Positions 30,118-49,829 of a DNA stretch of 64,000 bases are shown piece after piece. The stretch's first letter is position 1, and every line of letters starts with the position of its first letter. This DNA is from Chloroflexota bacterium (GTDB lineage: Bacteria; Chloroflexota; Dehalococcoidia; Lucifugimonadales; UBA3495): assembly GCA_027623675.1 (NCBI GenBank), contig JAQBVF010000012.1, positions 24,350 to 88,349 of the forward strand. The letters run 5' to 3'. The translations under genes and the position numbers were made by a program. A model generated the notes under the pieces. It was not told the DNA's origin and searched no databases. It saw only the letters and a list, made by a program, of their open reading frames with translations.

Positions 30118-30538
30118 CCACCGGCGCCCCCCATTGCCTACCATCTCCAAAGGTGGCCACCGGGCGACCTCACGGCCCTCCCAACTGCCGTTCTTGGCCG
30201 TATCCTTCAGTGTCCGTCATACCGATCCACCAATCAGCCTGACTGCACGCCGCCGATATGGCTGCCTTACAAGCATGGATGCGTGATCACCTATATCTGT
30301 GTGTTCCACTTAGGTGTGATCTGCCCTGATTTCCCCCAGACCTATGCTCCAGACCAATGAATGCGATTGTCTTGTTGAACCTCGCGGTGTGTTCGCTTGG
30401 AATAAATGTTCCATCGCTGGTATTCTCGGAATCGTAGGCCTAGGGTCATTGCAGTTTGAGCCCATGATCAGCCGCATGACCTTTGTAAACTTGCTAAAGA
30501 CTCCGATTGAGATTCCGGTCTCAACGGAGATGAAGATA

Positions 30539-33500: not shown

Positions 33501-34183
33501 CAGACGACGGTCCTGGGATATCCGCGGAAAATCTTCCGAAGATATTCGACCCATTCTTCACGACTAAAGAGGTTGGCTCCGGCACAGGGTTGGGCCTGAG
33601 CGTTTCCCATGGAATCATCGCCCAGTTGGGGGGCAATCTCTGGGCGGAGAGCGACGGCGAGACAGGCGCTACCTTCCACATCGAGATTCCGAAAGCACCG
33701 GCCGGCAAAGCACCGGCCCCCCACGTAGAGGAACCGGCTGCCGTGGGACCGCCCGAGGCGGCTTCAGCGGGAGAAGACCAGGCGGAGAAAGTTGGAACCA
33801 CCGCCCCCCTTCGCGTTCTGATCGTGGACGATGAGCCGGCTATTCGCGAGATAATGTCCAGGGTACTCGGACGACGAGGCCATCAGGTTGACCAGGCAAG
33901 CGACGGCGAAGAAGCGTGGCTCAGGCTGCAGGAAAATAGATTCGATTGCATCCTGCTCGACGTCCGCATGGCCGGGACCGGCGGCCAAGAACTTTTCGAG
34001 CGTATCAATGCTTTGGACCCCAGCCTGGCCAGGAGTGTTATCTTCCTAACGGGAGACCTGGCGCGCGTGCACACTCATTCCTTCTTGGGCTCGTTGGATA
34101 ATCTGGTCATCGAAAAACCCATCACGATCGAAAGTATCGACCTGGCGCTCGCCAAAGTTTCTTCTGGTCTAACCGGGATCTAG
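30539..34183 (+). CDS. Hybrid sensor histidine kinase (multiple GAF, PAS, HisKA, HATPase, REC)
   Basis: Four GAF-like repeats (xPL...GTL-type motifs), PAS (IHPED, DGTVRWI), H-box VAHEINNPL, DDGPG, GTGLGL, C-terminal VDDE...LDVRM...KP. Start placed at MTSTQSG (GGAG upstream). Confidence 0.9.
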   Translation: MTSTQSGSQELNTIVQITEILTGRLPFLEKCGSVLAVLADFTGSELVTLRELDAENATLELIASHNHLEPPAGARASIPAHAYLSAEAIENRTAFAINDYSALGTVTPGYLDGIKSALSIPIQIDGEVVGTLGFGSTSTGHYTKDIVRVVGAIAVVVGMMVAKAELQEGFEVEASLGRIVSAPLVGPDVFDRFAKEAARIVDFDRLTLNSVDMAENTFVTEFIIGNQILGFPIGVPRDIGGTVIESVIRSRAGRRVRLDRLEDLESRYPQAMPFLNDGQPYLASVPLIVSDQIIGTLGFVRGLRPFSQKELAKTELLGNLIAGAFADFKAQEFRTKAEEELEKSRTILEAEAAMGRILSSSLPINDAFKGFSVEIMKLVSCDRLAIMGVDLEKNLFAEEFLYLPGGQANGLRSGQSLDGTLIAAALASGGCVAISADDLEFKAPRFRILLQLLDDGQTEFMAVPLVSQNQTVGAMGFTRAGDKFTQEDQDRAVRIGNLISGPLASHILERARTEAETKIAKNGAVLEAEAAIGRILSSPLEGGGAYEKLSAEIANIIPLDRVVVAGIDLETQTFSNELARFLNDSGTPNFSHNGLSYAGSITSEVLKHGVGQFVNIDDPRLLAGSLPRVNAVFALGFKAIMAVPLVFDEKIIGTMILLSKDERGYTAEDIATGDRIGRILAGALARFTLTAERDRFQIALSESEARFREIANSIRGVFWLMELTPLRMVYASPNFEDLWDIPIDQVYEDMEQWHATIHPEDLAKHKRLREQAFVSGELDVEYRVIKRDGTVRWIRCLAFPIKDEEGKLVRISGISEDITEKKQELDRFTEAGRLLSIGELASGVAHEINNPLASIKLYSEALMGQDLPDSAVSDLRIISEQGNRAAAIVRNLLQFARKSYQEISAVSATHFVERCIDLKRHDFRINNISITSDVVLQSPDITVDEHLMTQVLLNILNNAEQACMDGRGSGSISVGVGETKNLIKISVTDDGPGISAENLPKIFDPFFTTKEVGSGTGLGLSVSHGIIAQLGGNLWAESDGETGATFHIEIPKAPAGKAPAPHVEEPAAVGPPEAASAGEDQAEKVGTTAPLRVLIVDDEPAIREIMSRVLGRRGHQVDQASDGEEAWLRLQENRFDCILLDVRMAGTGGQELFERINALDPSLARSVIFLTGDLARVHTHSFLGSLDNLVIEKPITIESIDLALAKVSSGLTGI

Positions 34184-34295: not shown

Positions 34296-35171
34296 CTATA
34301 GGACCGCTTCCGCCACTTTTTCGATGGCGTCATGGGCCGACTTTTCGTCGGTGGTGTTCAGCATGTGGACCACCCGGTCGGCGCCGGAGTCGGCGAAGCG
34401 TCGGTTCATCTCCCGGTCGGCGGGCGCGTCCCACATGCTGATGTTCAGGACCGACGCGTCCCGGCCCTTGGCGGTCATCAGCTCTTCGATGTGTCGGCGC
34501 GCTCCCGCGAGCTTGTCGGGGTCTTGGTACTGGGATGTGTTGCGGGCCCTGGGCAGCCAGCCGTCGCCGTAGTTGGCGATACGCCGGGCCGCGCTCTCCA
34601 GCTCGCCGCCAACGAACACGGGCGGGTGGGGCTTCTGCACCGGCTTGGGGGCGCAGACCAACGGCGGAAAGTCGATATATTCGCCGTGGTACTCGGTGAT
34701 CTCCGTGGTCCAAAGCTCTTTCATCACTTCGATGTATTCCCTGGTCTGCTTCCAACGGTGGGGGAAATCCACGCCTAATATCTCCGACTCGCCCCTCAGC
34801 CAACCCGCGCCAACCCCAAAGAGGAAACGCCCTCCGGATATCTGGTCCAGCGTTGCCACCTCTTTGGCCAGGCGGATGGGGTTGCGCTCGGGGACCAGGC
34901 AGATGCCCGTGCCCAGCTTGATCTTGCTGGTGACCGTGGCGGCCCCGGCCAGAAATATCAGGGGGTCGATGATCTGGTTGATGCCGCCCTCGGCGTAGAA
35001 CCGGGGGATGCCGCCCTGCCGCCCCTGGGGCGGGTCAACTTTGAAGTCGATGGGCACGATGCCGTGTTCAGGCGCCCAAAGCGATTCAAAGCCCAGTTCT
35101 TCCACCTTGCGGGCCAGGTCTATGGTGTTGAAATCGTGCTGGGTCATTAACAGGGCTATTCCGATATCCAT
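34296..35171 (-). CDS. LLM-class F420-dependent oxidoreductase
   Basis: WAPEH, ERNPIRLAKEVATLDQISGGRFLFGVGAGW, PKPVQKPHPP. Confidence 0.92.
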   Translation of the reverse strand: MDIGIALLMTQHDFNTIDLARKVEELGFESLWAPEHGIVPIDFKVDPPQGRQGGIPRFYAEGGINQIIDPLIFLAGAATVTSKIKLGTGICLVPERNPIRLAKEVATLDQISGGRFLFGVGAGWLRGESEILGVDFPHRWKQTREYIEVMKELWTTEITEYHGEYIDFPPLVCAPKPVQKPHPPVFVGGELESAARRIANYGDGWLPRARNTSQYQDPDKLAGARRHIEELMTAKGRDASVLNISMWDAPADREMNRRFADSGADRVVHMLNTTDEKSAHDAIEKVAEAVL

Positions 35172-35768: not shown

Positions 35769-36611
35769 TCAGGACTTCCTTGGGGAGGCGCCGATGCTGC
35801 GGGCGAACTCGTCAAGTTCCTTGGCCAGTGCGTATACATCCACAGGTTCCCGGCTAGCCAGCAAGGCTTTGGTCCGGGGATCGGTGTAGGTGGCGGTATT
35901 GAAGATATCCTGAAGGTCTCCGGAAAGTAGATCGTTCAGGCCGCCTCCGCCGATCTGCAAGTCTGGGATGGCCTCCACCATGGTCCGCACCAACGGCTCG
36001 GGGGTGGACCGGCCGCGGCGATGGCCGTTGGGCGTGGAGATGCTAGACGCTTCCTGTGGGCGACCGGTGAGCGGAGGTCCAGTCTCAGGTTCGCCATCAT
36101 CCAACGTGACAACCGCTTCAGCGTCCGTGGACTCTTCGCCGCCCTCCGATGCGGCAGGTCGAACCGGGTCTTCTCCCGGCTCATTGGCCTGATCAGCGGG
36201 TGCGGGCTCATTTGGAGCAGCCGAGGGAGTAGGCCGGGCAAAAATCTCCTCGACCAGTTTGGGGTCAACCGCATCCTCGCCGGCCTGGACCATGCGGCCC
36301 GGCGCAACCGGGGTTAGCCCTGGCATCGATTCCAGGTCTGGGCCGGGTGAAGGCGAAACGGCCGGGGCGATGGCCCCCAACGCCCGCAGGGCTTCAGCGG
36401 CGCTGTCGCTGGCCCTGTCGTTCCCCAGGGTTTTCGTGAAAACACGCTTTAGCACCCGGCCGAACGGGTTCAGTACGGGCGCCATAAACATCTCGTACTC
36501 CACCCGGCGAAAACCCGTGATTATCCGGCCCACGGAATAGGTGTCGTTGTTGAACAGGCGAGGGGTTCGCCTGATCACCGTCTTAACGTTTGGTAACAAT
36601 GGCAGTCTCAT
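35769..36611 (-). CDS. Hypothetical protein at the distal end of the archaellum cluster
   Basis: 280-aa ORF co-oriented with arlJ; GGAG RBS; Pro/Glu-rich middle and a helical-looking C-terminus. Confidence 0.65.
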   Translation of the reverse strand: MRLPLLPNVKTVIRRTPRLFNNDTYSVGRIITGFRRVEYEMFMAPVLNPFGRVLKRVFTKTLGNDRASDSAAEALRALGAIAPAVSPSPGPDLESMPGLTPVAPGRMVQAGEDAVDPKLVEEIFARPTPSAAPNEPAPADQANEPGEDPVRPAASEGGEESTDAEAVVTLDDGEPETGPPLTGRPQEASSISTPNGHRRGRSTPEPLVRTMVEAIPDLQIGGGGLNDLLSGDLQDIFNTATYTDPRTKALLASREPVDVYALAKELDEFARSIGASPRKS

Positions 36612-36687
36612 GGTTGATACTCCGGTCTTTCATTTTTGCCGGCTAAGTGCCCTCAGATGGCTCCTAGCTCCTGGTTAGCAGCGGACC

Positions 36688-38244
36688 TTAGATGCAAAAG
36701 ATCTTTCCGGTGACCACCGGCACGGCGGCCAGTACAAAGCCTGAAACCAGGCTCATCAGCGCAAAGTAGGAAACTATCTTCAGGTGGCTTCCCCCTGCCG
36801 CCGCCTTGGGGGCCAGGGAGTTGGCGATGGTCAGGATCACCACCACCACCACGATCATCAACGTCACCAACCCCATGTCCTGGTTGCCGAACAGGTCGAG
36901 CCCGCCGGCCAATTCGCCCTGGGCCGGAAGCGACACACCCGGCGGGATTGCCAGCCCGTCGGGCACTGCGAAATCGGCCGATCCAGCGCCATCGAGCCCC
37001 GCCGAAGCGGAGCTCAACTTGGCGTTGAAGTTGGATATGATCTCCAGCACGAAGACCAAAATGAACGTCATGGTGGCATGCATCGGCAGGGTCAAGAACG
37101 AGAATGTGGATGCCGTGAGCGCCCGCTTGGCCCGCAGCTGCACCATTTTCAGGGCGTATGACGAGCAGATGTTGCCCACCTGGTCTGGCTGCCCGCCCAG
37201 TTCGGCGCCGTCCTCCATCATGTGGGTGGTGCGCTTGACCAACTCGCTGCCGGTCTCGGCCCTGAAGGCTTCCCAGCATTGCTGGGTGGGCAGGCGTGCC
37301 GCCAGTCTGACGTTCAGGCGGTCGATGTGCGGCTCCAGCGAACCCATCGACTTGGTGTCGATCCGCTTCAGGGCTTCGGTTAGGGTCACACCCGAGGCCC
37401 CGGCGATGTTTCCCACGCTGCGGATGAAGGTGGGAAACTCGGTGTCCAGGTTGGACACGCTCCCGTCGTCCTTCCAGGCGTACCAACCGGCGGGCAACAG
37501 TGATACCCCGATGGCCAGGAAGGCGATGGCGCTGCCCATCATCAGTTCGAATTGGGGCGCAATGACCAGAGCCGCGGCGATGCCCACCGGCCCCAGCAAG
37601 GCCAGGAAACGCCGTGCCTTCTTGCGGTTGGGGGTTAACGCCCCGTCGGCATCGTAGGTGATCTGCTCCACGGGTGCGACCTTGTAGATGATGAAGACGC
37701 CCACCCCGGTGATGAAGAAGAGCGCGAAGCCCATAATCACGATGAAATTCTGGCCCAGAGAACCCATCATGGTGGAAACCAGCGACACCACCATGATCAG
37801 CGTCACCGAGATCAGGATGGCCGCGTAGGCGTCGGTCCACTTGCGAAGGTTCTCCACGCTGCGTTCGTATTCGTTGCCGTAACGCTCACCCTCGGTCTGG
37901 GCCTCTTGGATCATGAACTCCCGCTCCGACTCCCCCGATGATATGGAGGCGGCGAAACGAAGCAGCAGGCTCTTGATGCTGGAGGCACGGGCCTTCTCGG
38001 CGGCAAGCTGAAATGCCCGGGTGTATTCCATGCCCACCCGCTTAGCCATCAGGTAGATGAAATCGAAGAACACGGCCGTCTTGAATCTCTGGCAGGCGCA
38101 GTGCTCTAAGACCTGGTCTCTGGGCAGGCTGCCCAGGCTCAGGACCGACATGTAGGTTAGATTCGAGAGGAGGTCGAACCCGACGTCCAGGTTATCGGAA
38201 GAGACCTTGTCTATAGGCTTGAGAGAGGATCCCATGGAGCTCAT
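36688..38244 (-). CDS. flaJ: Archaellum membrane platform protein ArlJ/FlaJ
   Basis: Two T2SS-F-like halves; LLRFAASISSGESE, YERSVENLRKWTDAY, FPTFIRSVG, ETGSELV; follows arlI. Confidence 0.88.
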   Translation of the reverse strand: MSSMGSSLKPIDKVSSDNLDVGFDLLSNLTYMSVLSLGSLPRDQVLEHCACQRFKTAVFFDFIYLMAKRVGMEYTRAFQLAAEKARASSIKSLLLRFAASISSGESEREFMIQEAQTEGERYGNEYERSVENLRKWTDAYAAILISVTLIMVVSLVSTMMGSLGQNFIVIMGFALFFITGVGVFIIYKVAPVEQITYDADGALTPNRKKARRFLALLGPVGIAAALVIAPQFELMMGSAIAFLAIGVSLLPAGWYAWKDDGSVSNLDTEFPTFIRSVGNIAGASGVTLTEALKRIDTKSMGSLEPHIDRLNVRLAARLPTQQCWEAFRAETGSELVKRTTHMMEDGAELGGQPDQVGNICSSYALKMVQLRAKRALTASTFSFLTLPMHATMTFILVFVLEIISNFNAKLSSASAGLDGAGSADFAVPDGLAIPPGVSLPAQGELAGGLDLFGNQDMGLVTLMIVVVVVILTIANSLAPKAAAGGSHLKIVSYFALMSLVSGFVLAAVPVVTGKIFCI

Positions 38245-40057
38245 AGAAGTTGCTTATTCCCCTTTCGTGGAGTTTGCGCAGGACCACCGCTCTGGCGGTG
38301 ATCTCGTCGTAAATGCGCCGAGTTTCCTTGGGCGGCAGGCCCCGCCGGATGCCCACCACATTCTCCAAAAGATAGGCGTTGTTGAAACCGGGGAACTCGA
38401 ACTTGTCCGTTGCCGGGTTCCACCGGAAGACCTCTATGTAGTTGAACGAGTTGGTCTCGGTGTCGTAGGACACGATCTCGTTGATGCTCATCACCCGGCG
38501 GCCGGTGCTGCCGTCGGGCAGTCTCACCGCGCTCATGATGATGACCAGGTTCAGGCTGTCCACGTAGGTCTTGGGGATGTTAATGGGGTGCCCGGTCAGC
38601 CGCTGGATCAGTTTCTCCACCGACGATGCGTGGAACGTGGCCAGACAGGCGTGTCCGGTCTGCATGGCTTGGAAGGCGATGGCGCCCTCCTCCCCCCGGA
38701 TCTCGCCGATTATTATCTCGTTGGGACGCTGCCGCATGGCCGCCTTTAGCAGGTCGAACATGGTGACCGACGAACTGCCGCCGGCGCTGCCGCGGACCAC
38801 CTCACGGGTCCAGTTGGGGTGGGGCACCTGCAACTCGGCGGTATCCTCGATGCTTACGATCTTGTGGTTGGGGGGTATGAGCGTGGTTGCCGCGTTCAGC
38901 AGAGTGGTTTTGCCCGAGGCCGTCTCCCCTGAGACAAAGCCGTTCATGCCGGTGCCAATCATCAGCGACAGGTAGGCGGCCATCTCGTAGGAGAGGGTGC
39001 CGCCATCGATCAGGTCGATGATGCTCATTGGGGTTGTCTTGAACTTTCGGACGGTGAAGTTGCTGCCCCGTTTGGAAACGTCGCCGCCAAACACGATGTT
39101 GACCCTGGAACCGTCGGGCAGCACCGCGTCCACGATGGGGTCGCGCACGGTCACGGGCCGGCCGATCTTCTCCGACAGCTTGATGACGAACCGGTCCAAC
39201 TCAGACTCGGTGTCGAAAGATATGCCCGCCTTCAGCCCGCCGAATATCTTGTGCTCCACGAACAGGGGGCCGACGCCGCTGCAAGATATGTCTTCGATGT
39301 AGGGGTCCAATATCAGGGGTTCCATGGCGCCCAGGCCCTCTTTGTCGCGGACCATCAGGTAGCGCAACCCTTCCAGTTCCGCCTTGGTGACCCTGATGGC
39401 TTTGCGGTTCCGCATCCCGCCATTCACCGTGCAGATACGCTCCAGGCAGCTCAACAACACCTTGCTGCGGTCGTCGCCGTCGTCGGCCTTGAGTTCTTCG
39501 ATATAGCTGATCAGCTTCCGGTCGACCTGGTCCATGAGACCAGGAACGTTGGGCCCCATGGACGGTTCTATGGCGATGTAGAAGTCCCGGCTGTCGCGTG
39601 GGTCGGGGTACAGGTGGATGAAGATGCCCTCGCTGACCGGGTAGATGATGTTGCGGTATTCCTGCCCGCCCATGCCCTTGGTCAAACGGGAGTGGTACTG
39701 AGGCATGCCGATCTCGTCCATCGGCAACTCCGTCAGGTATTCCCACACGTGGGGATGGGTGCGGGACTGCTCCTGAAGGTCTTCCGTCAGAGAGAGGTAC
39801 AGGTCAGAATCCAGGTCCAGCGGCTGGCCGCCGAGACCCTGGTCCACCGCTGCGTGTTTCTGGCCCGAGAGGGATGGCGGCCAGAAACGCCATGGCAGGC
39901 GCAGGAAAGACCCGGCCTGTTGATTACCCGGCACGGCAACCAAAACGTCATCATTCTCTGCCGGGTCTCTTTCAGGCGGCTCTTCAGAGGGCGCGACGGC
40001 GGCTCCGGCCATTCCGGAACCGCTGTTCATACTGATGTTTAGTGGACCTAATTGCAC
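38192..40057 (-). CDS. flaI: Archaellum motor ATPase ArlI/FlaI
   Basis: DPYIEDISCSG, LPDGSRVNIVFG, GETASGKT, RQRPNEIIIGEIRG, AMQTGH, QRLTGHPINIP, EVFRWNP. Exact start uncertain. Confidence 0.92.
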   Translation of the reverse strand: MQLGPLNISMNSGSGMAGAAVAPSEEPPERDPAENDDVLVAVPGNQQAGSFLRLPWRFWPPSLSGQKHAAVDQGLGGQPLDLDSDLYLSLTEDLQEQSRTHPHVWEYLTELPMDEIGMPQYHSRLTKGMGGQEYRNIIYPVSEGIFIHLYPDPRDSRDFYIAIEPSMGPNVPGLMDQVDRKLISYIEELKADDGDDRSKVLLSCLERICTVNGGMRNRKAIRVTKAELEGLRYLMVRDKEGLGAMEPLILDPYIEDISCSGVGPLFVEHKIFGGLKAGISFDTESELDRFVIKLSEKIGRPVTVRDPIVDAVLPDGSRVNIVFGGDVSKRGSNFTVRKFKTTPMSIIDLIDGGTLSYEMAAYLSLMIGTGMNGFVSGETASGKTTLLNAATTLIPPNHKIVSIEDTAELQVPHPNWTREVVRGSAGGSSSVTMFDLLKAAMRQRPNEIIIGEIRGEEGAIAFQAMQTGHACLATFHASSVEKLIQRLTGHPINIPKTYVDSLNLVIIMSAVRLPDGSTGRRVMSINEIVSYDTETNSFNYIEVFRWNPATDKFEFPGFNNAYLLENVVGIRRGLPPKETRRIYDEITARAVVLRKLHERGISNFYELHGILSQAYRQGLFR

Positions 40058-40119
40058 AAGGTTTTATCGCTCTCTTGGACCAGAATTGGTTCAGCTAAGA
40101 ATCTAGCTCGCGCCCCTGG

Positions 40120-40839
40120 TCACGCCCGGGCTTTAGATATGGGTACGATCCTGATGCCCAGGCCGGGGTCGACCTCGAAGCCCGAGATGTTGCCGGTGGG
40201 AGCGTCGGCCCCCCGGATCTTGGCAACCTCAATGGTTTTCTGAAGCTGGCCCCCGGATTTGACCACCTCCAGGCGCAGGTGGGCGTCGCAGATCGAACGC
40301 ACCCTGGTCAGGATGGCCGGGTCGAAGGCGTCGGCGTGGACGGTGCCGATCACCACCTTGCCCTGGTCGCAGAAAGATTTGCAGCCGTTGAAGAATTCCT
40401 GTATCTGGTCGCCGCCGGTCCGGGAGACGAATGTGGTTAGGGCGTCCACCAAGATGACCCGGCATTCGTCCTGTTTCATGATGTGGCTCCGCAGTTCCTC
40501 GAAGAGGACCTGTGGGGCCGCGGTGTCGGGCGGGATGGATATGGGGTAGACCTGCAGCAGGTCCAGCAGGAAGTAGTCGCGGACGTCCAAACCCAGGCTG
40601 GTCATCTGGCGGAGGAAGCTTTGCACCGTCTGCTCGGTGGTATAGAGCGCAGCCTTCTCGCCGGACTGCAGCGCTCCCCAGACCAGTTGCTGGGCCAGGG
40701 TGCTCTTGCCCGACGAAGACTGGCCCTCGATCAACATCAGCGTGCGGTAGGGAATGCCTCCGCCCAGTGCGCGGTCCACATCATCCGCGCCGGCTGAGAT
40801 GATTTCAGTAAGTTGCTGGTCTTCAAGTGTGGTAGTCAT
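40120..40839 (-). CDS. flaH: Archaellum KaiC/RecA-fold ATPase ArlH/FlaH
   Basis: DRALGGGIP, EGQSSSGKS, YTTE, RSICDAHL, FEVDPGLGIRIVPISKA; single domain of 239 aa. Confidence 0.9.
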   Translation of the reverse strand: MTTTLEDQQLTEIISAGADDVDRALGGGIPYRTLMLIEGQSSSGKSTLAQQLVWGALQSGEKAALYTTEQTVQSFLRQMTSLGLDVRDYFLLDLLQVYPISIPPDTAAPQVLFEELRSHIMKQDECRVILVDALTTFVSRTGGDQIQEFFNGCKSFCDQGKVVIGTVHADAFDPAILTRVRSICDAHLRLEVVKSGGQLQKTIEVAKIRGADAPTGNISGFEVDPGLGIRIVPISKARA

Positions 40840-40880
40840 GTGGTCTCCATGGTCTAGGGGCGCTCGTCTAAAGGCGCCGG

Positions 40881-42530
40881 TTAGGGCAGTCTGATCACGG
40901 TTGGGTACACGGTAGTGTCATACGCCAGCCACATGTCCTTGCTGGCCTTGATGGTGTCGGCAATCATCCTAGCTTCCAACCGGTTCCCCGCGGGGATGGT
41001 GTAGTTCACGTCTGGAATCATTATGGTTTGGGCGACGAAGGTGCCCGACCCCTGCTGCCAGTCCTCGACGAAGATACTGCCGTTGGCAATCTCGGTGTAG
41101 CTGGCCCCGTTGTAGTCCCGAAGGTAGATGGTCATCGCGCCCGATTGTTCGGCCTGGAAATTGCGAACTCCGGCCCAGATGTCGACCATGACATCGCCCT
41201 CGATGCCAAGGTCTTCGCCCAGCGGGCCGGTCTGCCAGACCTGGAACTTGTCGGCGGTCACCTCGGCCAAGCCAAGGTCGGTCCCTTTCAGCAGCAGTCC
41301 GGGGTTGTTGTTGGGAACCCCGTAGCGGTATAGGACACTGCCGGAGCTGCCCGTTTCATCCAGAGGGAGTACGGCTTGGCGGCTGGTGTCGCCCGCTGGC
41401 GGAGACGGATCGTTGTGCAGGTAATAGGAAGTGGACGTCATCGGCGGCAGGAAGGCCAGATTGACCAAAGATGAATGCTGCACCGTGTCGTAGGCCACGG
41501 TCATGTCCTGCTCAGATGCGATGTCGATCTGCAGGCGTATCTCCAGTTCGTTGCCCGCTGGGATGGTGTAATTTATGTCTTTGATCAGAGCCATCCGTTC
41601 CACGAATCCGGTGGCGCCAGACTGCCAATCTCTGGCGAAAACAGCGCTTTCGCCGATCTCTGTATGGGAAACCCCGTCAAAGTCCCGCAGGTAGACGACG
41701 ACTATGCCGATCTGACCTTGAGTTACCGGAGCCAACGCGGCGAAGATATCGACCAGCACACTGCCGTTGATTACCTTGGGAGCGCCCAGAACTCCGGTCC
41801 GCCAGACCTGGTACTTGGTGGTCAGGGATTCGGACAGACCGTTCTGGGTCCGCAGCAGGGTTAGCCCCGGGTCGGCGTCCCGGTTGTTGTCGTAATTGAA
41901 CAGGGTGGTGGCCGAGGGCAGGCCGCCCTCCATGGTCAGCAACAGTTGCGACGCGGTGTCGGCGGTGGGCGGGGTCGGGAAATTGTGCAGGAACCGGCAA
42001 TCGGCATCGGAAACGTCGGTGAAGTTCACGTAGCTTGAGTCGCTCACCCCGTTGGGGGTGACCACGGTGACATAGCCGGAGGTCCCCGGCAGCTGAGGCC
42101 GCAGGAACCGCCAGGTGAATGACAGGGTCTCGCCCGGGTCCCATGCCCCGCCGAAATCCACCGGGTCTACCCCGGTTACCGACCATTCGTCTTGCAAAAG
42201 GTTTCCGCTGGTGTACTGGAACGGCGTAGTCGCCGGCTGGCCTGTTTCGTCGGTGTACCAGGTAAATACGTCCATCGCTTCAAAATCGTCGATTGGCTTA
42301 CTGCCGACGTTCTTGATGTGGGTTCGGACGATGGTGTCGCAGCGGAAGACACTGAAGGCGGTGGCTTCCTGTATGGCGATGGCCGTGGTGGCCTGCTCAC
42401 GGCCAAGAGAGGCAGACCGGCGCACCGCGCCGCCCACCACTTCGTCGCCGTGTAGTTTCGTTTGATACATCATGAATACACTGGTGAATAGAACAGCCAG
42501 GATCAGCAGACTTGTGACTGCGGTCCCCAC
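40881..42530 (-). CDS. ArlF/FlaF-like protein with two tandem C-terminal domains
   Basis: N-terminal TM, KNVGS, MDVF, WDPGETL, TVVTPNGV (ArlF/G-like) followed by a duplicated ~190-aa domain. Confidence 0.75.
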   Translation of the reverse strand: MGTAVTSLLILAVLFTSVFMMYQTKLHGDEVVGGAVRRSASLGREQATTAIAIQEATAFSVFRCDTIVRTHIKNVGSKPIDDFEAMDVFTWYTDETGQPATTPFQYTSGNLLQDEWSVTGVDPVDFGGAWDPGETLSFTWRFLRPQLPGTSGYVTVVTPNGVSDSSYVNFTDVSDADCRFLHNFPTPPTADTASQLLLTMEGGLPSATTLFNYDNNRDADPGLTLLRTQNGLSESLTTKYQVWRTGVLGAPKVINGSVLVDIFAALAPVTQGQIGIVVVYLRDFDGVSHTEIGESAVFARDWQSGATGFVERMALIKDINYTIPAGNELEIRLQIDIASEQDMTVAYDTVQHSSLVNLAFLPPMTSTSYYLHNDPSPPAGDTSRQAVLPLDETGSSGSVLYRYGVPNNNPGLLLKGTDLGLAEVTADKFQVWQTGPLGEDLGIEGDVMVDIWAGVRNFQAEQSGAMTIYLRDYNGASYTEIANGSIFVEDWQQGSGTFVAQTIMIPDVNYTIPAGNRLEARMIADTIKASKDMWLAYDTTVYPTVIRLP

Positions 42531-42602
42531 GGGTTAGCGCCCGCTCTTAACGGCGAATGACCCGGCGGTTTCCGGGTTGGCTAAACATTGGCTAAACATC
42601 GG

Positions 42603-43109
42603 CTAAACACAGGGGGCCATGTCTACCAGGTCTACGCTGTCGGTCACCCCTTGGGGCGTTCCCACCGTGACGGTGGCGGTCCCCGGTTCGGTCAGCAACG
42701 CCTTGCCGTCGACGGTCAGCATCTCCCCTGGATTGAATATCCCCGGCTCGAAACTGCCGGTCAGAGCGGTATCCGTCCACTCTCCAACCGCCAGCGGCCC
42801 CGATGGAACGTAGGTCAGCCGTTGGGCCGCGTTGTTCCCGGAGGCGAACTGGACAATCACATCCATATCCACGGCATCCAGCACCCTGGTAGAGCCATCG
42901 TTTTCCACCTCCAACGAAAACCAGCAAGTGTTGTCTTGGTCCACGTTGCCGATCTTGATCCCAGTGCGGGCGTTCTCGCCCATGACCTTGTTCGCATCCC
43001 GGGTGGCGCCGCTCACTGCCACATCGCCGAACAGGGTGGAGCGGAATGTTAGCAGCGACGTGGTGAGGAACATCGCCAATATCAATAGGCCTGCCAGCGT
43101 CGATGCCAT
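42603..43109 (-). CDS. flaF: Archaellum stator protein ArlF/FlaF-like
   Basis: N-terminal TM, ENDGS, MDVIV, FNPGEML, VGTPQGV; lies between arlG and arlH. Confidence 0.75.
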   Translation of the reverse strand: MASTLAGLLILAMFLTTSLLTFRSTLFGDVAVSGATRDANKVMGENARTGIKIGNVDQDNTCWFSLEVENDGSTRVLDAVDMDVIVQFASGNNAAQRLTYVPSGPLAVGEWTDTALTGSFEPGIFNPGEMLTVDGKALLTEPGTATVTVGTPQGVTDSVDLVDMAPCV

Positions 43110-43115
43110 GGCGCA

Positions 43116-43598
43116 TCACCTGCTGAAAACCCGTTCGGCAACGACGCCGTTGGGGGTGGATATTCGGATGGAATGGCTGCCGCTGACCAACGGATCGCCG
43201 GACGGCAATGTGATCGCGATATGCAGAGTCTGGCCCCGGTCCCATGACGAACCGGCCGGCAGTTCGGTCCAGGTGTTGTCGCCACTGGTGGCGTAGGCCA
43301 TTGCGTCGTAGCGCGTGCCGGGCGTCACCACGAAGACATCCGAGGAGCTCAATCCAAAGATGGGGGCCACGCCCACGTTCTTGATCCAGGCGTCCACCAG
43401 GGTCCCGGCGCTGTTGGCCGCCACGGCGATGACCTCGATGTCGGTTTTGATGATGGCCGAGGCTTCCCGCTGCGCTTCCAACACCGACTGGCTGCTGCCC
43501 GACACAGACGGGCCGATGGTGAGGATCACCACCAACGCCGCCGTGACCGAACCGATGACCAGTAGGCCGGTGACAATGACCTTATCCAACCGGGCCAC
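43116..43598 (-). CDS. flaG: Archaellum stator protein ArlG/FlaG
   Basis: N-terminal TM, IKTDIEVI, AWIKNVG, DVF, WDRGQTL, TPNGV. Confidence 0.8.
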   Translation of the reverse strand: MARLDKVIVTGLLVIGSVTAALVVILTIGPSVSGSSQSVLEAQREASAIIKTDIEVIAVAANSAGTLVDAWIKNVGVAPIFGLSSSDVFVVTPGTRYDAMAYATSGDNTWTELPAGSSWDRGQTLHIAITLPSGDPLVSGSHSIRISTPNGVVAERVFSR

Positions 43599-44457
43599 CG
43601 TACTCTGAGATTTCCCGGCCGTCGTGGGACTCTGGGACCTGGATGGTCCTTATGTTGTAGTTGCTCGTGTCCGAGTCGGCGGAACCGTGGGAGTTCTTCT
43701 TGATATTGGGCTTGCCATTCCCCAACGGCTCCGCCTCGATGCGGACCTCCTCCAGGTTCTCCAATAGGTTCGCCCGGTGATTCTCGGGGAGATTTCCTGA
43801 TAGATTTCCGGGCATATTTCGAGGGAGTTCGTCCTGGCGCATCGCCGAGTAGCCTTCCATGATCCCCACGGCTTGCTCCGACACCACTTCCACGGCGCAG
43901 ATGATGTCGTGTAGTTGGCCGATGCAATCGGCGTATTGCTCGGGGGAGAATTCCACTTCCTGGGGTGTGTAGGCCAACTGGTCCAGGTCGGCCAATGACC
44001 GGAGCAGGACCTTTAGCATGATCGGCGGCAGATAGCCCGACGCTTCATAGGCCTCCAAGAAGGGGGTCACCTGCTGCAGAGACAGGCCCATCCGTTTCAC
44101 GGTGCCCAGCCAATCGATGACGTTGGCCAACATCATTGGGTCCATGCCGTCCGCCCGCGGGCCGGGGGCAGATTGACCAGCCGGGGCGGTGGACCGCCTG
44201 CCGTTGATCCCATTCGTGCTAACCGGAGGCTCCCTGGCGTAAACGACGCGGGCCGGCAGAGGCGACGATATCCGAAGCCTTTCTTCCTCTTCCGTTTGGG
44301 AAAACACCGTTCGGCCCTTCATCATGTGTTCCCGCAGGTCGATCAGCGTCTGCTTGATCTCATTCTTCAGCAGGTCAACCTCGTCTTGGAGGGCTTCGAA
44401 CCGCTCTGCGATGTCGATGGAAACCAGCCGGTCTACTCGGGTTCCTTGTTCCACCAT
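43582..44457 (-). CDS. Putative ArlCDE-like (FlaC/D/E-like) protein
   Basis: Between arlB and arlG; N-terminal coiled coil (FEALQDEVDLLKNEIKQTLIDLRE) and VIDWL...FLEAYEASGYL resembling the FlaD/E core; start MVEQG after GGAG. Confidence 0.5.
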   Translation of the reverse strand: MVEQGTRVDRLVSIDIAERFEALQDEVDLLKNEIKQTLIDLREHMMKGRTVFSQTEEEERLRISSPLPARVVYAREPPVSTNGINGRRSTAPAGQSAPGPRADGMDPMMLANVIDWLGTVKRMGLSLQQVTPFLEAYEASGYLPPIMLKVLLRSLADLDQLAYTPQEVEFSPEQYADCIGQLHDIICAVEVVSEQAVGIMEGYSAMRQDELPRNMPGNLSGNLPENHRANLLENLEEVRIEAEPLGNGKPNIKKNSHGSADSDTSNYNIRTIQVPESHDGREISEYGGPVG

Positions 44458-44653
44458 TGCTATTTCTCCGGTCTGCCGTTTGTCTGGGGTTGTGTTTGGA
44501 AAGTGCCGGTAAATCGGATCTGGAAAGCCGGATCCGTAAGGTTTGAACGGGGATCTGATCCGGAAACCTTGATAAGGATCAGTGGGTGCCTGCCAGGGAA
44601 AGCAGGCACCCACCAACCCAGCCTACGGGGACGTGATTGACGGCGAGTTTGGG

Positions 44654-45505
44654 TTAGCCCAGGTCCATGATCTGGGTGATCTCCACCGGGCTGGTGCGGG
44701 TGACGGTGAACGGAGCGCCTTGGGCGGGGATCAGTTCCACCTTGAAGGGCTCGTTGGTCGGCACGCTTATGCTCTGGTTGGCATCAAGGTCGTAGATCGA
44801 GAGACCGTCGGCGTGGGCGGAGGCCGTGGTGCCATTGTCGCCACGGGTGACCGTGAGGTCGTTGAGGGCGATGCCGGTGATGGTCATCTGCTCGTTCTCC
44901 AGGTAGATGATGTCGTTCGCCGCGAACACGGAGCCGTCGGCGACGGTCAGGGTCGTGTCGGTTGAGGAGAACACGGCCCCCTCGCTGGTGGTGGTGCCGC
45001 TGTCGGTGGTGGAGAAGAAACCAACCGTGATCTCAACCACTTCACCGGAGTCCAGTGAGTTGCCGGTGCCCAGCTTCCACTCTGAATACCACCATGGCGA
45101 GGTCTCGCCGATACCCGTGGGGCTGGCGGAGCGGGTCAGGGTGACCAAGTTGCCGGTGTCGGTGTAGGTTAGCAGGGTGCTAAGGGGGTCCAGTCCCACC
45201 GGGGCGGAACCGCTGTTGGTCATCTTGAACTGGACGGTGGACAGAGAGCTCAGGGCGGGGTTGGCCCTGGCGACCACTGCGCCCTTGGGAGTTAGCGTGG
45301 TCGAGGCTTCGCCCAATCCAGCGGAGGCGGACTCCGCTGCTTTTTCTGAGCTGAATAGCCCGGTGGTGATGACGGCGAAGGCGAACACCGCCGCAACTAC
45401 CACGAAAGCGATCAAGACGATGGCCGTTTCCAAGCCGGTGATGCCACGTTGGTTGTACAAACCAACACCAAAGAGGGGATTTCTGCCGTTCAGAATGCTC
45501 TTCAT
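44654..45505 (-). CDS. flaB: Archaellin ArlB/FlaB
   Basis: Class III signal peptide QRG/ITGLETAIVLIAFVVVAAVFAFAVITTG, LDSGEVVEITV, and C-terminal FKVELIPAQGAPFTVTRTSP...MDLG. Confidence 0.93.
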   Translation of the reverse strand: MKSILNGRNPLFGVGLYNQRGITGLETAIVLIAFVVVAAVFAFAVITTGLFSSEKAAESASAGLGEASTTLTPKGAVVARANPALSSLSTVQFKMTNSGSAPVGLDPLSTLLTYTDTGNLVTLTRSASPTGIGETSPWWYSEWKLGTGNSLDSGEVVEITVGFFSTTDSGTTTSEGAVFSSTDTTLTVADGSVFAANDIIYLENEQMTITGIALNDLTVTRGDNGTTASAHADGLSIYDLDANQSISVPTNEPFKVELIPAQGAPFTVTRTSPVEITQIMDLG

Positions 45506-45539
45506 CTTTAGACCTTCCAACAATTAGGAATCAGGTTGT

Positions 45540-45690
45540 GTCGTGGATAAATATATTCCCGTTAGAAGTTTAAGTAGTGTGGAAATAGTGTGAGAAACCG
45601 AGATTAATTAAACAATACGGAGAAATTTCTGGAAATTATAGGAAATACGGGAAATAATCAACCAAATTGGTACGAAAGGAGTAATAGAGG
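45540..45690. promoter_or_regulatory. AT-rich control region upstream of arlB with phased RGAAAT repeats
   Basis: RGAAAT at 45621, 45631, 45641, 45650 and 45581, in a markedly AT-rich stretch. Confidence 0.5.
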
Positions 45691-45995
45691 TTTGAGGCTA
45701 AAAACGGTAGGCGGAGGAGAAGGTGGGCAGGGCTGCCGCGGAAACGGTCAGCCCCATTTGGTGCGCCGGGGGGCCCACGGCGGGCCGGCCGGCATGCTTG
45801 GCCTATGTTTTGATGTCGGTTCCTTCGTGCTTGGTTGGTCCGGCGTGATCACCTGCCAACCGTTATCGGGCGAACCATGGGACGGCCGTGTGGCTCTCCC
45901 ATTCCACATATCCTCTAGCTGTTGGCGCAACGCTGCCCGGGCCGGACCGGTTGGCTCCGCGTCCCAGGCATCTGGCCTGGGCTGAGACTCCCCGT

Positions 45996-46765: not shown

Positions 46766-47137
46766 CTATCTAGCTTGGGCCAAGGCCGAGGTAACGGCTG
46801 TCTCCACCACACCACGGCGCCAAGGCTTGGTCACGTGATAGGTGTTGGGCGTGTCAAGAATCTGGTTCTCCTGCTCGGACAGCGAGAATGCGGTGAGCAG
46901 TATGACCGGCAGGTTCTCGGTGGTCGGATTGTCCCGCAGCCTCTGCAGCACCTGGATGCCGCTCATCAAGGGCATCAACACATCCAGCAGGACCAGGTCT
47001 GGGCGGTCAAGTTGGACCTGACTTACCGCGATCTGGCCGTTCTCGGCCTGGGTCACCTGGTGTCCGGCTTCTTCGAGCAGGTCGGCCAACAGGGCCCTCA
47101 TGTCTGGTTCATCGTCCGCGACTAATATCCTTCCCAT
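46766..47137 (-). CDS. Single-domain response regulator (REC only)
   Basis: ILVADDE, LLDVLMP, LLTA, KP. Confidence 0.9.
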   Translation of the reverse strand: MGRILVADDEPDMRALLADLLEEAGHQVTQAENGQIAVSQVQLDRPDLVLLDVLMPLMSGIQVLQRLRDNPTTENLPVILLTAFSLSEQENQILDTPNTYHVTKPWRRGVVETAVTSALAQAR

Positions 47138-47223: not shown

Positions 47224-48441
47224 CTAGGTTGCGGCGGCCAATCGGTTGCCGGCGCTCTCCCCAGCGGGCCTGGACTCGGCGCTGATGGGCAGCGTTAGGC
47301 TGAAAGTGCTTCCCTTGCCCTCTTCACTCTCCACCCAGATCTTACCCCCATGGGCCTCCACCAGTTGCTTGGTCACGTACAGACCCAACCCAGTCCCCGA
47401 CACCGCCTGTGCCGATGGGCTGCTGGCCCTGTAGAACTGGGAGAACAGGTTGCGCTGGTCTTCTTGGGAGATGCCGAACCCCGAGTCCACCACGTCGATC
47501 TGGGCGAATCTGCCAGCTTCGTGGACCACCACCGAGATAACGGACCCGGGCGGCGAGTATTTACAGGCGTTGCCCAGCAGGTTAACCATGATCTGAGAAA
47601 GCCTCAGCTCATCGGCGCGGACGTGGGCAACCGCGTCGGGGGAGACCAGTTCCAGCGTCATGCTCTTCTCGTTCAGTTGGTTCTGGATGTATCCCACGAC
47701 ATTTTCTAATTCTTTGGCCAGGTACAGGTCGGTGGCATTGAGCTCCAAGGTGCCAGAATCGATCTTGGCCATGGCCATGATGTCGTCCACCAGTGCGTCC
47801 ATGCGGTAGCCGTTCCGTTGGACGGCCCTCAACTGCCTTAGCTGTGTCTCGTTGGGTGCGCCGTTTCGTTCCCAATCGACCAGGATCAGGTCAACAAAGC
47901 CCGAAAGATTGGCTAACGGAGTCTTCAGTTCATGGCTGGCGAGCGACAACACCTCCGTGGTGCGCCAAACAACTTGGTCCAGTTCGCGGGTCTTTTCCGC
48001 CAGTTTGGCTTCCAGCTTGGCCTTGGTGGACCCGGTTGCTACCCCCATTCCGGTCCGCGCCGCCAGGGATGAGCGGACACGCAGCAGCAGTTCGTGCGGC
48101 TGCACTGGCCGGCAAATCACATCGGTTACGCCGGCGTCCACGGCTTTTTGGACACCGGCAGGGTCGTTCCTGTCCACCAGGCCCAACAAGGCGGTCCGTC
48201 CGACGGATAAAGCGTTCTTCAGTCCGCCAGGGAAACCGGGTCCCTCGGTCTCAGCCTCGGCCAGATTGATTATGACCAGGTCGAATCGGGAAAATAATCG
48301 GTCCAGATGATTGAAGCCGGTGTAGCCGGGAGCGCCCCTAACGGTCTCGGCCGCTACCACGCCGGTGTATCCCGCGGACTCAAGTTCAATTTTAAGCTGG
48401 TCCCGGTCCTTGAAGGACCGGTCTATGATTAGAATGTTCAT
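47224..48441 (-). CDS. Histidine kinase with an N-terminal pseudo-receiver domain
   Basis: [30 protein letters not shown]; the REC-like N-terminus has DLVIINL and CRP. Confidence 0.88.
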
Positions 48442-48586: not shown

Positions 48587-48967
48587 CTACTCGTACACAA
48601 CCTCCACACGCGATAGATACTCCGCCAACCCGTTGACCAGTATCTTGATCTCTTGGACCTGCTTACCTAAGGCCGCGCTCTCCAGAGAGCGGCCGATCAG
48701 CGACATGTCTTCGAACCCAAATGACGCGCCGGTGCCGACCAGGTCATGGGCTACGTTTTGGATGTGCTCAAATTCGCCTTGCTCCAGGGCCCGCAGCAGC
48801 GAACCCACACTCTGACGCCGGTGCTCAAGATAGCTGTCCACGATATCGCCTATCCTTGGGTTTACCTGGACGACGATCGTTCCGCCGGACGAAGTGCGAG
48901 GCGTTTGGTTTGGCGATTGCGAGGTCGGATTTAGGGATGCTCTTGACCGCCGCGCCAAGCTACTCAT
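48587..48967 (-). CDS. Hpt (histidine phosphotransfer) domain protein
   Basis: IQNVAHDLVGTGASFGF...LESAA helical-bundle motif. Start uncertain. Confidence 0.78.
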   Translation of the reverse strand: MSSLARRSRASLNPTSQSPNQTPRTSSGGTIVVQVNPRIGDIVDSYLEHRRQSVGSLLRALEQGEFEHIQNVAHDLVGTGASFGFEDMSLIGRSLESAALGKQVQEIKILVNGLAEYLSRVEVVYE

Positions 48968-49145
48968 GACCAGACTCCTTGGCACGGCGCGGAACCCGCG
49001 CTACCCGGTTTAATTCTTGGCTTGCATAAAATCTATAGATTGTTCTACTCTTAATAGCAAATCCGCAATGGATTGTAGGCACGAAATGCATGTTTTGTGA
49101 TCCGTCCGGTCGTACCGGTGGCATTCGCCGGTCCACGGGGGTCTG

Positions 49146-49829
49146 ATGGCCGATACCAAGGTGTTGATCGTCGATGATGAGCCTGATTTTCTGGCGCTCG
49201 TCGAGAACTGGCTGGAGGATGACGGCTACGAAGTCCATACCGCCGCCAACGGTTTGGAGGGCCTGCAGTTGTTCGCGGAAGTCCGGCCTGAACTGACGAT
49301 CACCGACGTGCGGATGCCGGCCATGGATGGGTTTCAACTCATCAGCCGGATCCGGGAGATATCCGACGCCCATATCCTGGCGTTCACCGCCATGGGCGAT
49401 ACCGAGAATACGGTTCGCGGACTTGATCTGGGCGCCGACGACTACTTGGTTAAGCCCATCGCCAGGCGGGAATTTTTGGCCAGGGTGCGCTCCATCGTGC
49501 GGCGGGCAAAATCTCCCGGCGACGCTCCGGTGGAATACCAAGACTCCGTGATCACTTTGGACCTGCTGGCCCACGGCGCTACGTGCCGGGGTGAAGATGT
49601 CCACATGCGTCCCACGGAATACCGGCTGCTCACCTATCTGGCGCTCAACCACGAGCGGGTATTGGGTCATCAGGAACTCCTGGATAACGTATGGGGCAAT
49701 GAGGGAGGCTCGCTTGATTCTCTAAAGTGGTACGTTTCCGCTTTGAGAGACAAACTTGAGACCGATCCCAAGAAGCCCAACATAATCGTTACTTTTCCCA
49801 GGGTGGGATACCGCTACATCCGTCCCTGA
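49146..49829 (+). CDS. OmpR/PhoB-family response regulator
   Basis: VDDE, TDVRMP, GADDYLVKP, PTEYRLL, LRDKLE, VGYRY. Confidence 0.93.
   Translation: MADTKVLIVDDEPDFLALVENWLEDDGYEVHTAANGLEGLQLFAEVRPELTITDVRMPAMDGFQLISRIREISDAHILAFTAMGDTENTVRGLDLGADDYLVKPIARREFLARVRSIVRRAKSPGDAPVEYQDSVITLDLLAHGATCRGEDVHMRPTEYRLLTYLALNHERVLGHQELLDNVWGNEGGSLDSLKWYVSALRDKLETDPKKPNIIVTFPRVGYRYIRP

Follow-up and report, generated by a model that had tools for sequence, protein, structure and literature searches.

We analyzed a 64,000-nucleotide (nt) stretch, hereafter the window, of contig JAQBVF010000012.1 from a Chloroflexota genome (assembly GCA_027623675.1, positions 24,350 to 88,349), in which an earlier note, made from the sequence alone, had proposed a gene cluster for an archaellum (arl), the rotary motility machine of archaea. 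All nine open reading frames (ORFs) named in that note are present: arlB, an arlCDE-like gene, arlG, arlF, a long arlF paralogue, arlH, arlI, arlJ and a conserved gene of unassigned family lie co-oriented on the minus strand at 35769-45505 (Table 1), and their translations are uninterrupted by stop codons or frameshifts. From the arlCDE-like gene to the last gene the intergenic gaps range from -53 to +76 nt, with arlJ overlapping arlI by 53 nt. Shine-Dalgarno-like motifs stand upstream of arlB (GGAAGG, 8 nt ahead of its ATG), the arlCDE-like gene, arlH, arlJ and the last gene, which bears out the bacterial ribosome-binding sites described previously. The start of the arlCDE-like gene was placed at the ATG at 44457 because the alignment with its orthologue in the sister locus, L001, starts only at residue 54 of the longer ORF.

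Table 1 Genes and regions of the archaellum cluster and of its upstream flank, with the evidence for each
Feature	Position	Strand	Evidence
arlB, archaellin, 283 aa	44654..45505 (ATG at 45505)	(-)	Pfam Arch_flagellin, 76.9 bits (cut-off 29.5); TIGR02537, 32.9 bits (cut-off 20)
arlCDE-like, 291 aa	43582..44457	(-)	hhalign to Methanosarcinales counterparts, 98.9% probability, E 3e-17
arlG, stator filament protein, 160 aa, N-terminal transmembrane (TM) helix	43116..43598	(-)	Arch_flagellin, 36.2 bits (cut-off 29.5); profile matches FlaG
arlF, canonical short stator cap protein, 168 aa	42603..43109	(-)	Profile matches FlaF 4p94
Long arlF paralogue, 549 aa	40881..42530	(-)	AlphaFold2 (AF2) model: TM helix, ArlF immunoglobulin (Ig) domain, two jelly-roll domains
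arlH, KaiC/RecA-like ATP-binding regulator of ArlI, 239 aa	40120..40839	(-)	PRK06067 (FlaH), 244.1 bits (cut-off 194)
arlI, assembly and rotation ATPase, 621 aa	38192..40057	(-)	NF058587, 627.5 bits (cut-off 550)
arlJ, polytopic membrane platform, 518 aa	36688..38244	(-)	NF004703, E 1.6e-114, residues 14-517 of 518, 383 bits (cut-off 570); Pfam T2SSF, 29.6 bits (cut-off 25.2)
Conserved gene after arlJ, 280 aa	35769..36611	(-)	No Pfam/NCBIfam match
NarL/FixJ-type response regulator, receiver (REC) domain and degenerate LuxR helix-turn-helix	45996..46700	(-)	Response_reg, 76 bits
Single-domain receiver	46766-47137	(-)	Pfam
Histidine kinase with N-terminal pseudo-receiver	47224-48441	(-)	Pfam
Stand-alone Hpt protein	48587-48985	(-)	Pfam
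Region upstream of arlB, 490 nt, AT-rich	45506..45995	(-)	Sequence; alignment to L001
arlB-arlCDE spacer, 196 nt, 13-bp hairpin	44458..44653	(-)	RNA fold

The identity of the machine is carried by ArlI, which exceeds the curated cut-off of the archaellum equivalog model and scores far lower on the other ATPase families: 188 bits on BasE (bindosome), 158 on TadA and 51-60 on PilB/GspE/PilT (51-52 for PilB and GspE). Among structures in the PDB, FlaI (4ii7, E 2.9e-130) outranks CpaF (6e-47), and the translation contains the Walker A motif GETASGKTT and the Walker B motif IIIGEIRG. ArlI is also the sole T2SSE-family ATPase over the cut-off in the genome. For the phylogeny we used 84 ArlI rows, namely the window, 79 of the 80 best-matching loci and four loci from a genome search, together with five PilB-like rows and without archaeal pilus ATPases; we excluded L024 and L101, whose ORFs fall short of 480 aa, as well as L081 and L091-L093, which are from the own genome or partial. 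Between the ArlI clade and the PilB-like ATPases runs a branch 4.92 changes per column long, which the Shimodaira-Hasegawa-like approximate likelihood ratio test supports at 100%. An identity as a Tad, type IV pilus or type II secretion (T2SS) ATPase is therefore rejected on scores, structural matches and tree, and the grouping of ArlI and ArlJ with Tad or T2SS proteins, which the earlier note had named as the outcome that would speak against an archaellum, was not observed.

Within the tree, the ArlI of the window pairs with that of L001 (100%) inside a 14-row clade (99%) that contains SAR202 loci; the ten Methanobacteriota rows group together in a single clade (99%) amid Chloroflexota clades. 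Since the tree draws on the query's 80 best matches and is biased towards it, neither donor nor direction of transfer can be read from it; the published tree places Methanotecta as sister (PMC12488501). The nearest relatives of ArlI come from Dehalococcoidia metagenome-assembled genomes (MAGs), at 81% and 71% identity, followed by SAR202 loci at ~63% and Methanosarcinales at 49-60%.

The remaining core proteins were assigned by family models, orthologue profiles and fold comparison. ArlH is a KaiC-like protein that passes the FlaH model, carries the Walker A motif GQSSSGKST in its translation and reaches 201.3 bits, under the cut-off of 215, on the ArlH equivalog; ArlJ aligns over almost its entire length with the archaellum platform model, below the cut-off of that model, and passes T2SSF. 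ArlB is an archaellin by both models in Table 1, encoded by the single archaellin gene of the genome (one Arch_flagellin match over the cut-off). Its best PDB match is the archaellin of Litorilinea aerophila (9i5h/9sie/9sii, E 2e-16), whose solved chain begins with ITALET, its mature N-terminus, and aligns to ArlB residue 22. Relative to this archaellin, the outer domain of ArlB contains a Thr/Ser-rich insert of ~75 residues (44760-45010 in the window, residues ~164-239); the insert possibly forms an additional surface domain or serves for glycosylation.

The arlCDE-like protein has no direct match in Pfam or NCBIfam even at E 10. A coiled-coil motif at the N-terminus is followed by an ArlD/E-type domain (residues ~104-190) and by a tail specific to the lineage, and it is across the ArlD/E domain that 13 Chloroflexota orthologues align with six Methanosarcinales proteins in hhalign (Table 1). 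In each of the six Methanosarcinales loci one gene occupies the same position, and all six products match PF04659 (Arch_fla_DE) at E <= 0.024, one of them over the cut-off. By this profile-profile match to archaeal ArlD/E-domain proteins, the gene encodes the ArlCDE/ArlX cytoplasmic component.

ArlG and the two ArlF proteins score weakly on the direct NCBIfam models (25-29 bits against a cut-off of 110), with ArlG matching its equivalog NF052591 at E 9e-7, under the cut-off, and NF052590 being matched by the short ArlF at E 2e-5 and by the long one at 1.4e-5, in either case far under its cut-off. Profiles built from 25 orthologues each, taken from the retrieved loci, were more discriminating: the ArlG profile matches Sulfolobus acidocaldarius FlaG (5tug) at E 2.3e-16 with no match to FlaF, and the short ArlF profile matches FlaF (4p94) at E 5e-13, above FlaG at 1.9e-7. 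These reciprocal matches, together with the fold of the long paralogue, identify the ArlF/ArlG stator pair, and thus the order is arlG before arlF, the arl2 locus type that PMC12488501 describes for Chloroflexota archaellum loci. Family models, hhalign, fold comparison and orthologue profiles agree on every gene assignment proposed earlier, the "extended arlF" and "arlCDE-like" genes included. Judged by its sequence, the locus is a real, intact archaeal-type archaellum gene cluster.

One alternative is that the bacterium has borrowed a non-rotary, archaeal-type adhesion pilus. Type IV filament cores are homologous to one another, and ArlJ, ArlF, ArlG and ArlH all stay under the NCBI equivalog cut-offs, which is in its favor; however, ArlI exceeds the archaellum cut-off while the bindosome ATPase model gives a far lower score, the archaellum-specific parts (ArlH, ArlG, ArlF and the ArlD/E-domain protein) are complete, the gene order is that of Methanosarcinales arl2 loci, and the nearest solved filament subunit is the archaellin of a swimming bacterium. 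We consider the adhesion pilus highly improbable.

We also asked whether the cluster resides in the bacterial chromosome. The window lies within an 88-kb contig of a 3.07-Mb MAG (48 contigs, 91.4% complete, 5.7% contamination), and its flanks are bacterial and SAR202-typical, with luciferase-like monooxygenases, TRAP and MacB/FtsX transporters and CoA-transferases. The similar composition of cluster and surroundings, remarked on previously, was confirmed by GC content (0.608 in the cluster, 0.609 in the genome) and by tetranucleotide usage, with a correlation of 0.968 within the spread of 200 random chunks (0.975 +/- 0.015). The order histidine kinase, receiver, response regulator, arlB through arlJ, last gene and luciferase-like (LLM) oxidoreductase is identical in L001, which belongs to an independently assembled genome. 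In addition, one 23.5-kb Logan contig covers 32000-50000 with 0 differences, and tiled Logan contigs of a second run cross both cluster borders, again with 0 differences; both runs, X1 at ~52x and X2 at ~10x on this contig, are possibly the source sample. In run X3, a groundwater metagenome from a second study, arl genes and the flanking kinase are represented by fragments of 150-258 nt at low depth (~2-3x) with 0-1 differences, and a near-identical population thus seems to be present in another habitat record.

The contamination estimate of the MAG is what would favor an assembly or binning chimera, that is, archaeal DNA joined to a bacterial contig. Given the native composition, the sister synteny and the contigs across the borders, this hypothesis fails; the nearest ArlI relatives are all from Dehalococcoidia, and the near-identical fragments of the second study stand against it as well. 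The probability that we would still grant a chimera is negligible, and the continuity across the borders that the earlier note wanted checked is in place.

The host is a SAR202-like, peptidoglycan-less Dehalococcoidia bacterium. We found no bacterial flagellin, no penicillin-binding protein transpeptidase and a single Mur-ligase match in its genome, and SAR202 genomes are described as being without peptidoglycan synthesis and having an S-layer-like coat (PMC10444878). The eight arl genes show ratios of nonsynonymous to synonymous substitution (dN/dS) of 0.09-0.27 against L001 (Nei-Gojobori; dS 0.7-1.2, near saturation). Three separate ArlI lineages occur in the genus (L094, L095 and L102, from genomes G011, G014 and G003), with 56-60% and ~80% identity to the window, and G003 carries two, which hints that arl clusters were exchanged between members of the phylum or that old paralogues were lost differentially. 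In the surrounding 64 kb we also counted six luciferase-like (F420/FMN) monooxygenase paralogues, at 13604-14767, 17758-18771, 19273-20169, 29161-30117, 34296-35171 and 52228-53394.

The class of system to which the cluster belongs is already known and has been characterised structurally and functionally, and the window provides a further example. The Chloroflexota archaellum lineage was first noted in SAR202 isolates by Lim 2023 (PMC10444878), and Sivabalasarma 2025 (PMC12488501) reported arl in 243 of 3,780 Chloroflexota genomes, with cryo-electron microscopy and swimming in L. aerophila. The earlier statement that the class is known in Chloroflexota therefore stands, as does its rarity in bacteria overall; within the class Dehalococcoidia the system is not rare, since 84 of the 401 genomes that we sampled (each at least 90% complete) pass the ArlI cut-off.

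The closest characterised system is the arl2 archaellum of L. aerophila (PMC12488501), which has arlB, arlCDE, arlG, arlF, arlH, arlI and arlJ in the same order, a signal peptidase outside the locus and, as described there, no CheF and no flagellum; arlF duplication is noted in the same paper. The L. aerophila archaellin (PDB 9SIE/9SII) is the closest PDB relative of the window ArlB, with the cleavage site aligned. L. aerophila belongs to the class Caldilineae, whereas the window comes from a member of the Dehalococcoidia in which no peptidoglycan genes were found. The window also differs in having no pilN or pilO-LysM neighbours, a second ArlF with two jelly-roll domains, the archaellin insert, a conserved disordered gene product after arlJ and no A24 peptidase that we could find.

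The SAR202 bacterium 'Candidatus Lucifugimonas marina' (PMC10444878) shares the class, a genome of ~3.1 Mb, the peptidoglycan-less envelope and the flaGFHIJ order, and SAR202 MAG loci fall in the same 14-row ArlI clade with a NarL-type regulator adjoining. In contrast to the single arlB and missing A24 gene of the window, it has six tandem and six scattered flaB genes and a candidate FlaK with PF01478 (PMC10444878), and its complete F1 chemosensory system (PMC13747009) contrasts with the window genome, where CheW, methyl-accepting chemotaxis protein (MCP), CheA and CheF were not found. Among archaea, the Methanosarcinales arl2 loci (e.g. L068, on a Methanosarcina sp. chromosome) resemble the window in gene order, in the single ArlD/E-domain gene between arlB and arlG, in ArlI identity and in an ORF with an acidic disordered middle after arlJ, and differ in their short ArlF, in the poor match of that ORF (E 0.07-0.09) and in host domain and envelope. 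Particular to the window are thus the jelly-roll ArlF paralogue, the disordered protein after arlJ, the conserved NarL-type regulator and the lack of a detectable prepilin peptidase.

The long ArlF was modelled with AF2 from 40 homologues (pLDDT 87.9, pTM 0.79). After a TM helix, residues ~40-170 form an ArlF Ig domain that superposes on S. acidocaldarius FlaF (residues 40-170, VIA Z 16.8, root-mean-square deviation 1.7-2.0 A over 112-115 residues), and the top Foldseek match of the model is FlaF 4p94 (E 6.9e-9). Residues 171-362 and 363-549 are tandem jelly-roll domains of ~185 aa that share 43% identity (78 identical residues in 182 aligned positions), with an internal repeat score of 376 against 31 +/- 5 in 200 shuffles. 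These domains resemble the C-terminal jelly roll of CocE/PepX_C-type hydrolases (VIA Z 12-15.8), and in the ESM Atlas the long ArlF reaches a template-modelling (TM) score of 0.63-0.72 to PepX_C; the tandem carbohydrate-binding module (CBM) entry 4xup (CBM22) is also among the Foldseek matches. The S. acidocaldarius stator (4p94, 5tug) is therefore alike in the N-terminal domain of the long ArlF and in the profiles of short ArlF and ArlG, and different in sequence (20-24% identity) and in that the crenarchaeal ArlF binds the S-layer via a single domain, whereas the window paralogue adds two CBM-like domains.

A search of 5.8 billion proteins with the long ArlF returned 79 non-self matches, 56 of them spanning at least 85% of the query; these homologues belong to no Pfam family and bear only the name "hypothetical". 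A model of the jelly-roll domain found no copy beyond close relatives among the retrieved loci and just the one copy in the own genome. ArlF-like ORFs of at least 300 aa nevertheless recur, in 14 of the 80 retrieved loci, all from Chloroflexota and including L001 despite its truncation, whereas the ArlF proteins of the archaeal loci inspected are short (154-174 aa). The extra domains of the other Dehalococcoidia proteins differ from the window jelly rolls and mostly lack a named family: among the other 12 loci with a long ArlF, eight were scanned, and a PD40 propeller in L027 was the one named domain in their extensions. Extra domains joined to ArlF are thus found in several Chloroflexota loci, not just in the window. 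Separately, we recorded the ArlF-like proteins of 358-678 aa in other Dehalococcoidia at L027:7553-9049, L035:13854-15890 and, in L005, L010, L015 and L048, at ~5230-6500.

PMC12488501 notes the duplication of arlF in Chloroflexota, and the two papers that bring up ArlF alongside Chloroflexota say no more of it than this duplication. PMC13319060 counts the PilO-LysM fusion proposed for Litorilinea in 3 of 244 archaellated Chloroflexota. Our literature search, which did not cover the supplements of PMC12488501 and PMC13319060, found no paper joining ArlF, Chloroflexota and carbohydrate binding. We tentatively propose the long ArlF, with its CBM-like jelly-roll domains, as a candidate envelope anchor for an archaeal stator in a wall-less bacterium, a possibility that the predicted fold raises and that we would not yet call probable.

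The protein encoded after arlJ lacks a TM helix. It is acidic/Pro-rich and predicted to be disordered over most of its length, and three short motifs in it are conserved: KEYxVF, VEEIFAR and a helical block at the C-terminus. No Pfam or NCBIfam model matches it even at E 10, and its AF2 model has a pLDDT of 50.7. The family profile places the gene immediately after arlJ in four loci (the window, L001, L002 and L025), and 17 environmental homologues, all without a name, were found; its dN/dS against L001 is 0.46. A PDB profile search with the family gave nothing (best E 0.46), and the Atlas search gave just unnamed Chloroflexota clusters (0.86-0.89), with structure TM scores of at most 0.25. 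In Methanosarcinales loci, too, arlJ is followed by an ORF of ~260-300 aa whose middle part is acidic and disordered. Homology to these ORFs was considered and rejected: the same C-terminal segment aligned twice, but with hhalign E values of 0.066 and 0.091 and a probability below 1%. Its gene position alone points to a function, and by that guide the protein is probably a cytoplasmic accessory or scaffold.

We next consider how the cluster may be controlled. The 490-nt AT-rich region upstream of arlB contains a ~60-nt block conserved with L001 and is probably the promoter and regulator-binding region of arlB. A sigma-70 scan of the window returned five matches against a shuffle expectation of 4.0, with nothing above expectation in the arlB upstream region, and a terminator scan returned nine against 11.0. 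Three of the five TATTTCC heptamers of the window lie within 76 bp upstream of arlB (45581-45656, minus strand), beside the conserved block; the heptamer is not enriched window-wide, five matches being reached by 24 of 100 shuffles. The spacer between arlB and the arlCDE-like gene folds into a perfect 13-bp GC-rich hairpin (-72.8 kcal/mol, z -3.82; none of 200 shuffles reached so low an energy), which was not called by the terminator scan because it has no U-tract. This hairpin may be an attenuator, a terminator or an mRNA stabiliser that separates high arlB expression from lower expression of the motor genes. Among the sequencing runs listed as containing the stretch, none was an RNA run.

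Upstream of arlB, the response regulator has a GerE domain of 12.1 bits in the window, against 28.6-29.5 bits (cut-off 23.5) in its orthologues of L002, L018 and L025. Of the 14 loci in the ArlI clade to which the window belongs, 13 have an orthologue with at least 41% identity next to the arl cluster; the exception, L016, is a 5.4-kb contig. We regard this NarL-type protein as a candidate transcriptional regulator of the arl operon. The single-domain receiver and the histidine kinase are also present upstream in L001, in synteny and at 65-78% identity. Two further signalling genes were seen on the plus strand: a 1279-aa GAF-GAF-PAS hybrid histidine kinase at 30344-34183, with a lower GC content at third codon positions (0.68), and an OmpR-type regulator at 49146-49829 that flanks the cluster. 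Together, the hybrid kinase, the Hpt protein, the OmpR-type regulator and the kinase, receiver and response regulator upstream of arlB are reminiscent of a multi-step phosphorelay. No match to CheW, MCPsignal, H-kinase_dim (CheA) or CheF-arch was found in the 91.4%-complete genome, that is, no chemotaxis-coupled F1 chemosensory system. This fits the report that most archaellated Chloroflexota are without a chemosensory system (PMC13747009).

The locus is also without a prepilin peptidase. As the earlier note had it, neither an A24 peptidase nor a che domain occurs in the window, by a scan of 49 of its 58 called ORFs, and the search for PilD/ArlK and che genes that it suggested, made across the genome, came out negative too. 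Pfam detected no Peptidase_A24 (PF01478) in the genome, and an unfiltered search (--max) of the own genome with a model of the A24 peptidases of eight relatives reached nothing better than E 1.4. A class III signal peptidase (PibD/ArlK/PilD) was thus not detected, an absence that at 91.4% completeness is not proven. Among 18 genomes of the same genus, five have an A24 gene, which lies within an island of ~23 kb, rich in insertion sequences (IS), with PilB, PilC and pilins. In the sister genome G002 (C7 ~473.4-496.4 kb; L103/L104), this island encodes PilB, PilC, PilD, two pilins, a small histidine kinase and receiver pair and three rve transposases. In the window genome (G000), ~1.5 kb stands in its place on the unbroken contig C20 (~41958-43451), counterparts of PilB, PilC and PilD are absent across the genome, and no type IV pilus or Tad genes were found at its 91% completeness. 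Two orphan pilin-like genes with intact N_methyl motifs are present in metabolic neighbourhoods (L106:6412-6984, plus strand, on C5; L107:6182-6907, minus strand, on C43).

To place this gap in context, we turned to the class survey. An A24 match occurs in 77 of the 84 arl-positive genomes, and seven, the window genome included, are without one; among arl-negative genomes the match occurs in 165 of 317 (164 of 316 when G236 is left out). If any single gene has a 5-7% chance of being missed, the probability of at least seven misses in 84 is 0.13-0.37. The peptidase gap is therefore real in the assembly and at the ancestral site, yet it makes a poor case for a new enzyme. Most likely, the peptidase gene is in the ~9% of the genome that was not assembled, or its loss is recent. 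That the archaellin and the two orphan type IV pilins are matured without an A24 peptidase, by an unrecognised class III signal peptidase or by assembly of unprocessed subunits, we regard as very improbable; the proposal that the jelly-roll ArlF serves as an anchor is more likely.

Recent loss would leave a disabled relic: an intact operon whose filament could no longer be made once the sole prepilin peptidase had gone with the type IVa pilus island, and which is heading to decay. The joint absence of A24 peptidase, PilB and PilC, the clean absence of the island at its syntenic site and the two N_methyl pilin genes likewise left without a peptidase are consistent with this, as are the patchy occurrence of the cluster (in 5 of 19 congeneric genomes) and the damage in the sister locus. 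There, an IS630-like element (L001 6260-7432), carrying two oppositely oriented transposase ORFs, sits in the 5' end of the long arlF and has deleted its TM helix and ~84 codons, the remainder of the L001 operon being intact. Against decay, none of the nine genes contains a stop codon or frameshift, and the dN/dS values are low, though these are averaged over the whole divergence and blind to recent loss; moreover, 8.6% of the genome is unassembled, and the A24-negative genomes are as many as chance might leave. A relic is, in our judgement, unlikely.

Our preferred reading, which we hold to be probable, is that the window carries a complete archaellum operon of the arl2 type, that this operon resides in the chromosome of a member of the Dehalococcoidia that is SAR202-like and without peptidoglycan, and that it belongs to the known Chloroflexota archaellum lineage. 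Several observations weigh against it: the sub-cut-off equivalog scores of ArlJ, ArlH, ArlF and ArlG; the missing A24 peptidase, with the pilus island replaced on an unbroken contig and PilB, PilC and PilD lacking genome-wide; the sister long arlF cut by an IS; true ArlI genes in a minority of the genus; and the report that archaella were not seen by microscopy in SAR202 isolates (PMC10444878). Moreover, in assigning tentative roles to the long ArlF, the regulator and the gene after arlJ, we relied solely on fold, position and conservation.

Our model suggests how such a machine would work. By homology with archaeal and Litorilinea archaella, pre-ArlB would be cleaved after a 21-residue class III signal peptide, between G21 and I22. 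A hexamer of ArlI on the ArlJ platform would build the ArlB filament and then turn it by ATP hydrolysis, with ArlH modulating ArlI, the ArlCDE-like protein forming the cytoplasmic ring, and ArlG and ArlF the stator, as homologous proteins do; for these steps we follow the functional work on the homologous system (PMC12488501) and the stator logic of PMC13319060. The second ArlF may, via its CBM-like jelly-roll domains, tether the stator to the S-layer or to a surface glycan of the wall-less envelope. Expression would be controlled by the adjacent NarL-type response regulator, kinase and receiver rather than by a chemotaxis system, and the disordered protein after arlJ may serve as a lineage-specific cytoplasmic accessory.

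Cross-domain transfer of the archaellum is already settled, and the locus brings no new principle; its value lies in details on stator anchoring and on motor control without CheF. Published work leaves motor control without CheF open, and the conserved NarL-type regulator and the disordered protein after arlJ are candidates for it. Stator anchoring in bacterial envelopes is likewise left open in PMC13319060, and an ArlF with two carbohydrate-binding-like domains is a concrete candidate. If true, the jelly-roll ArlF anchor would bear on the anchoring question raised there.

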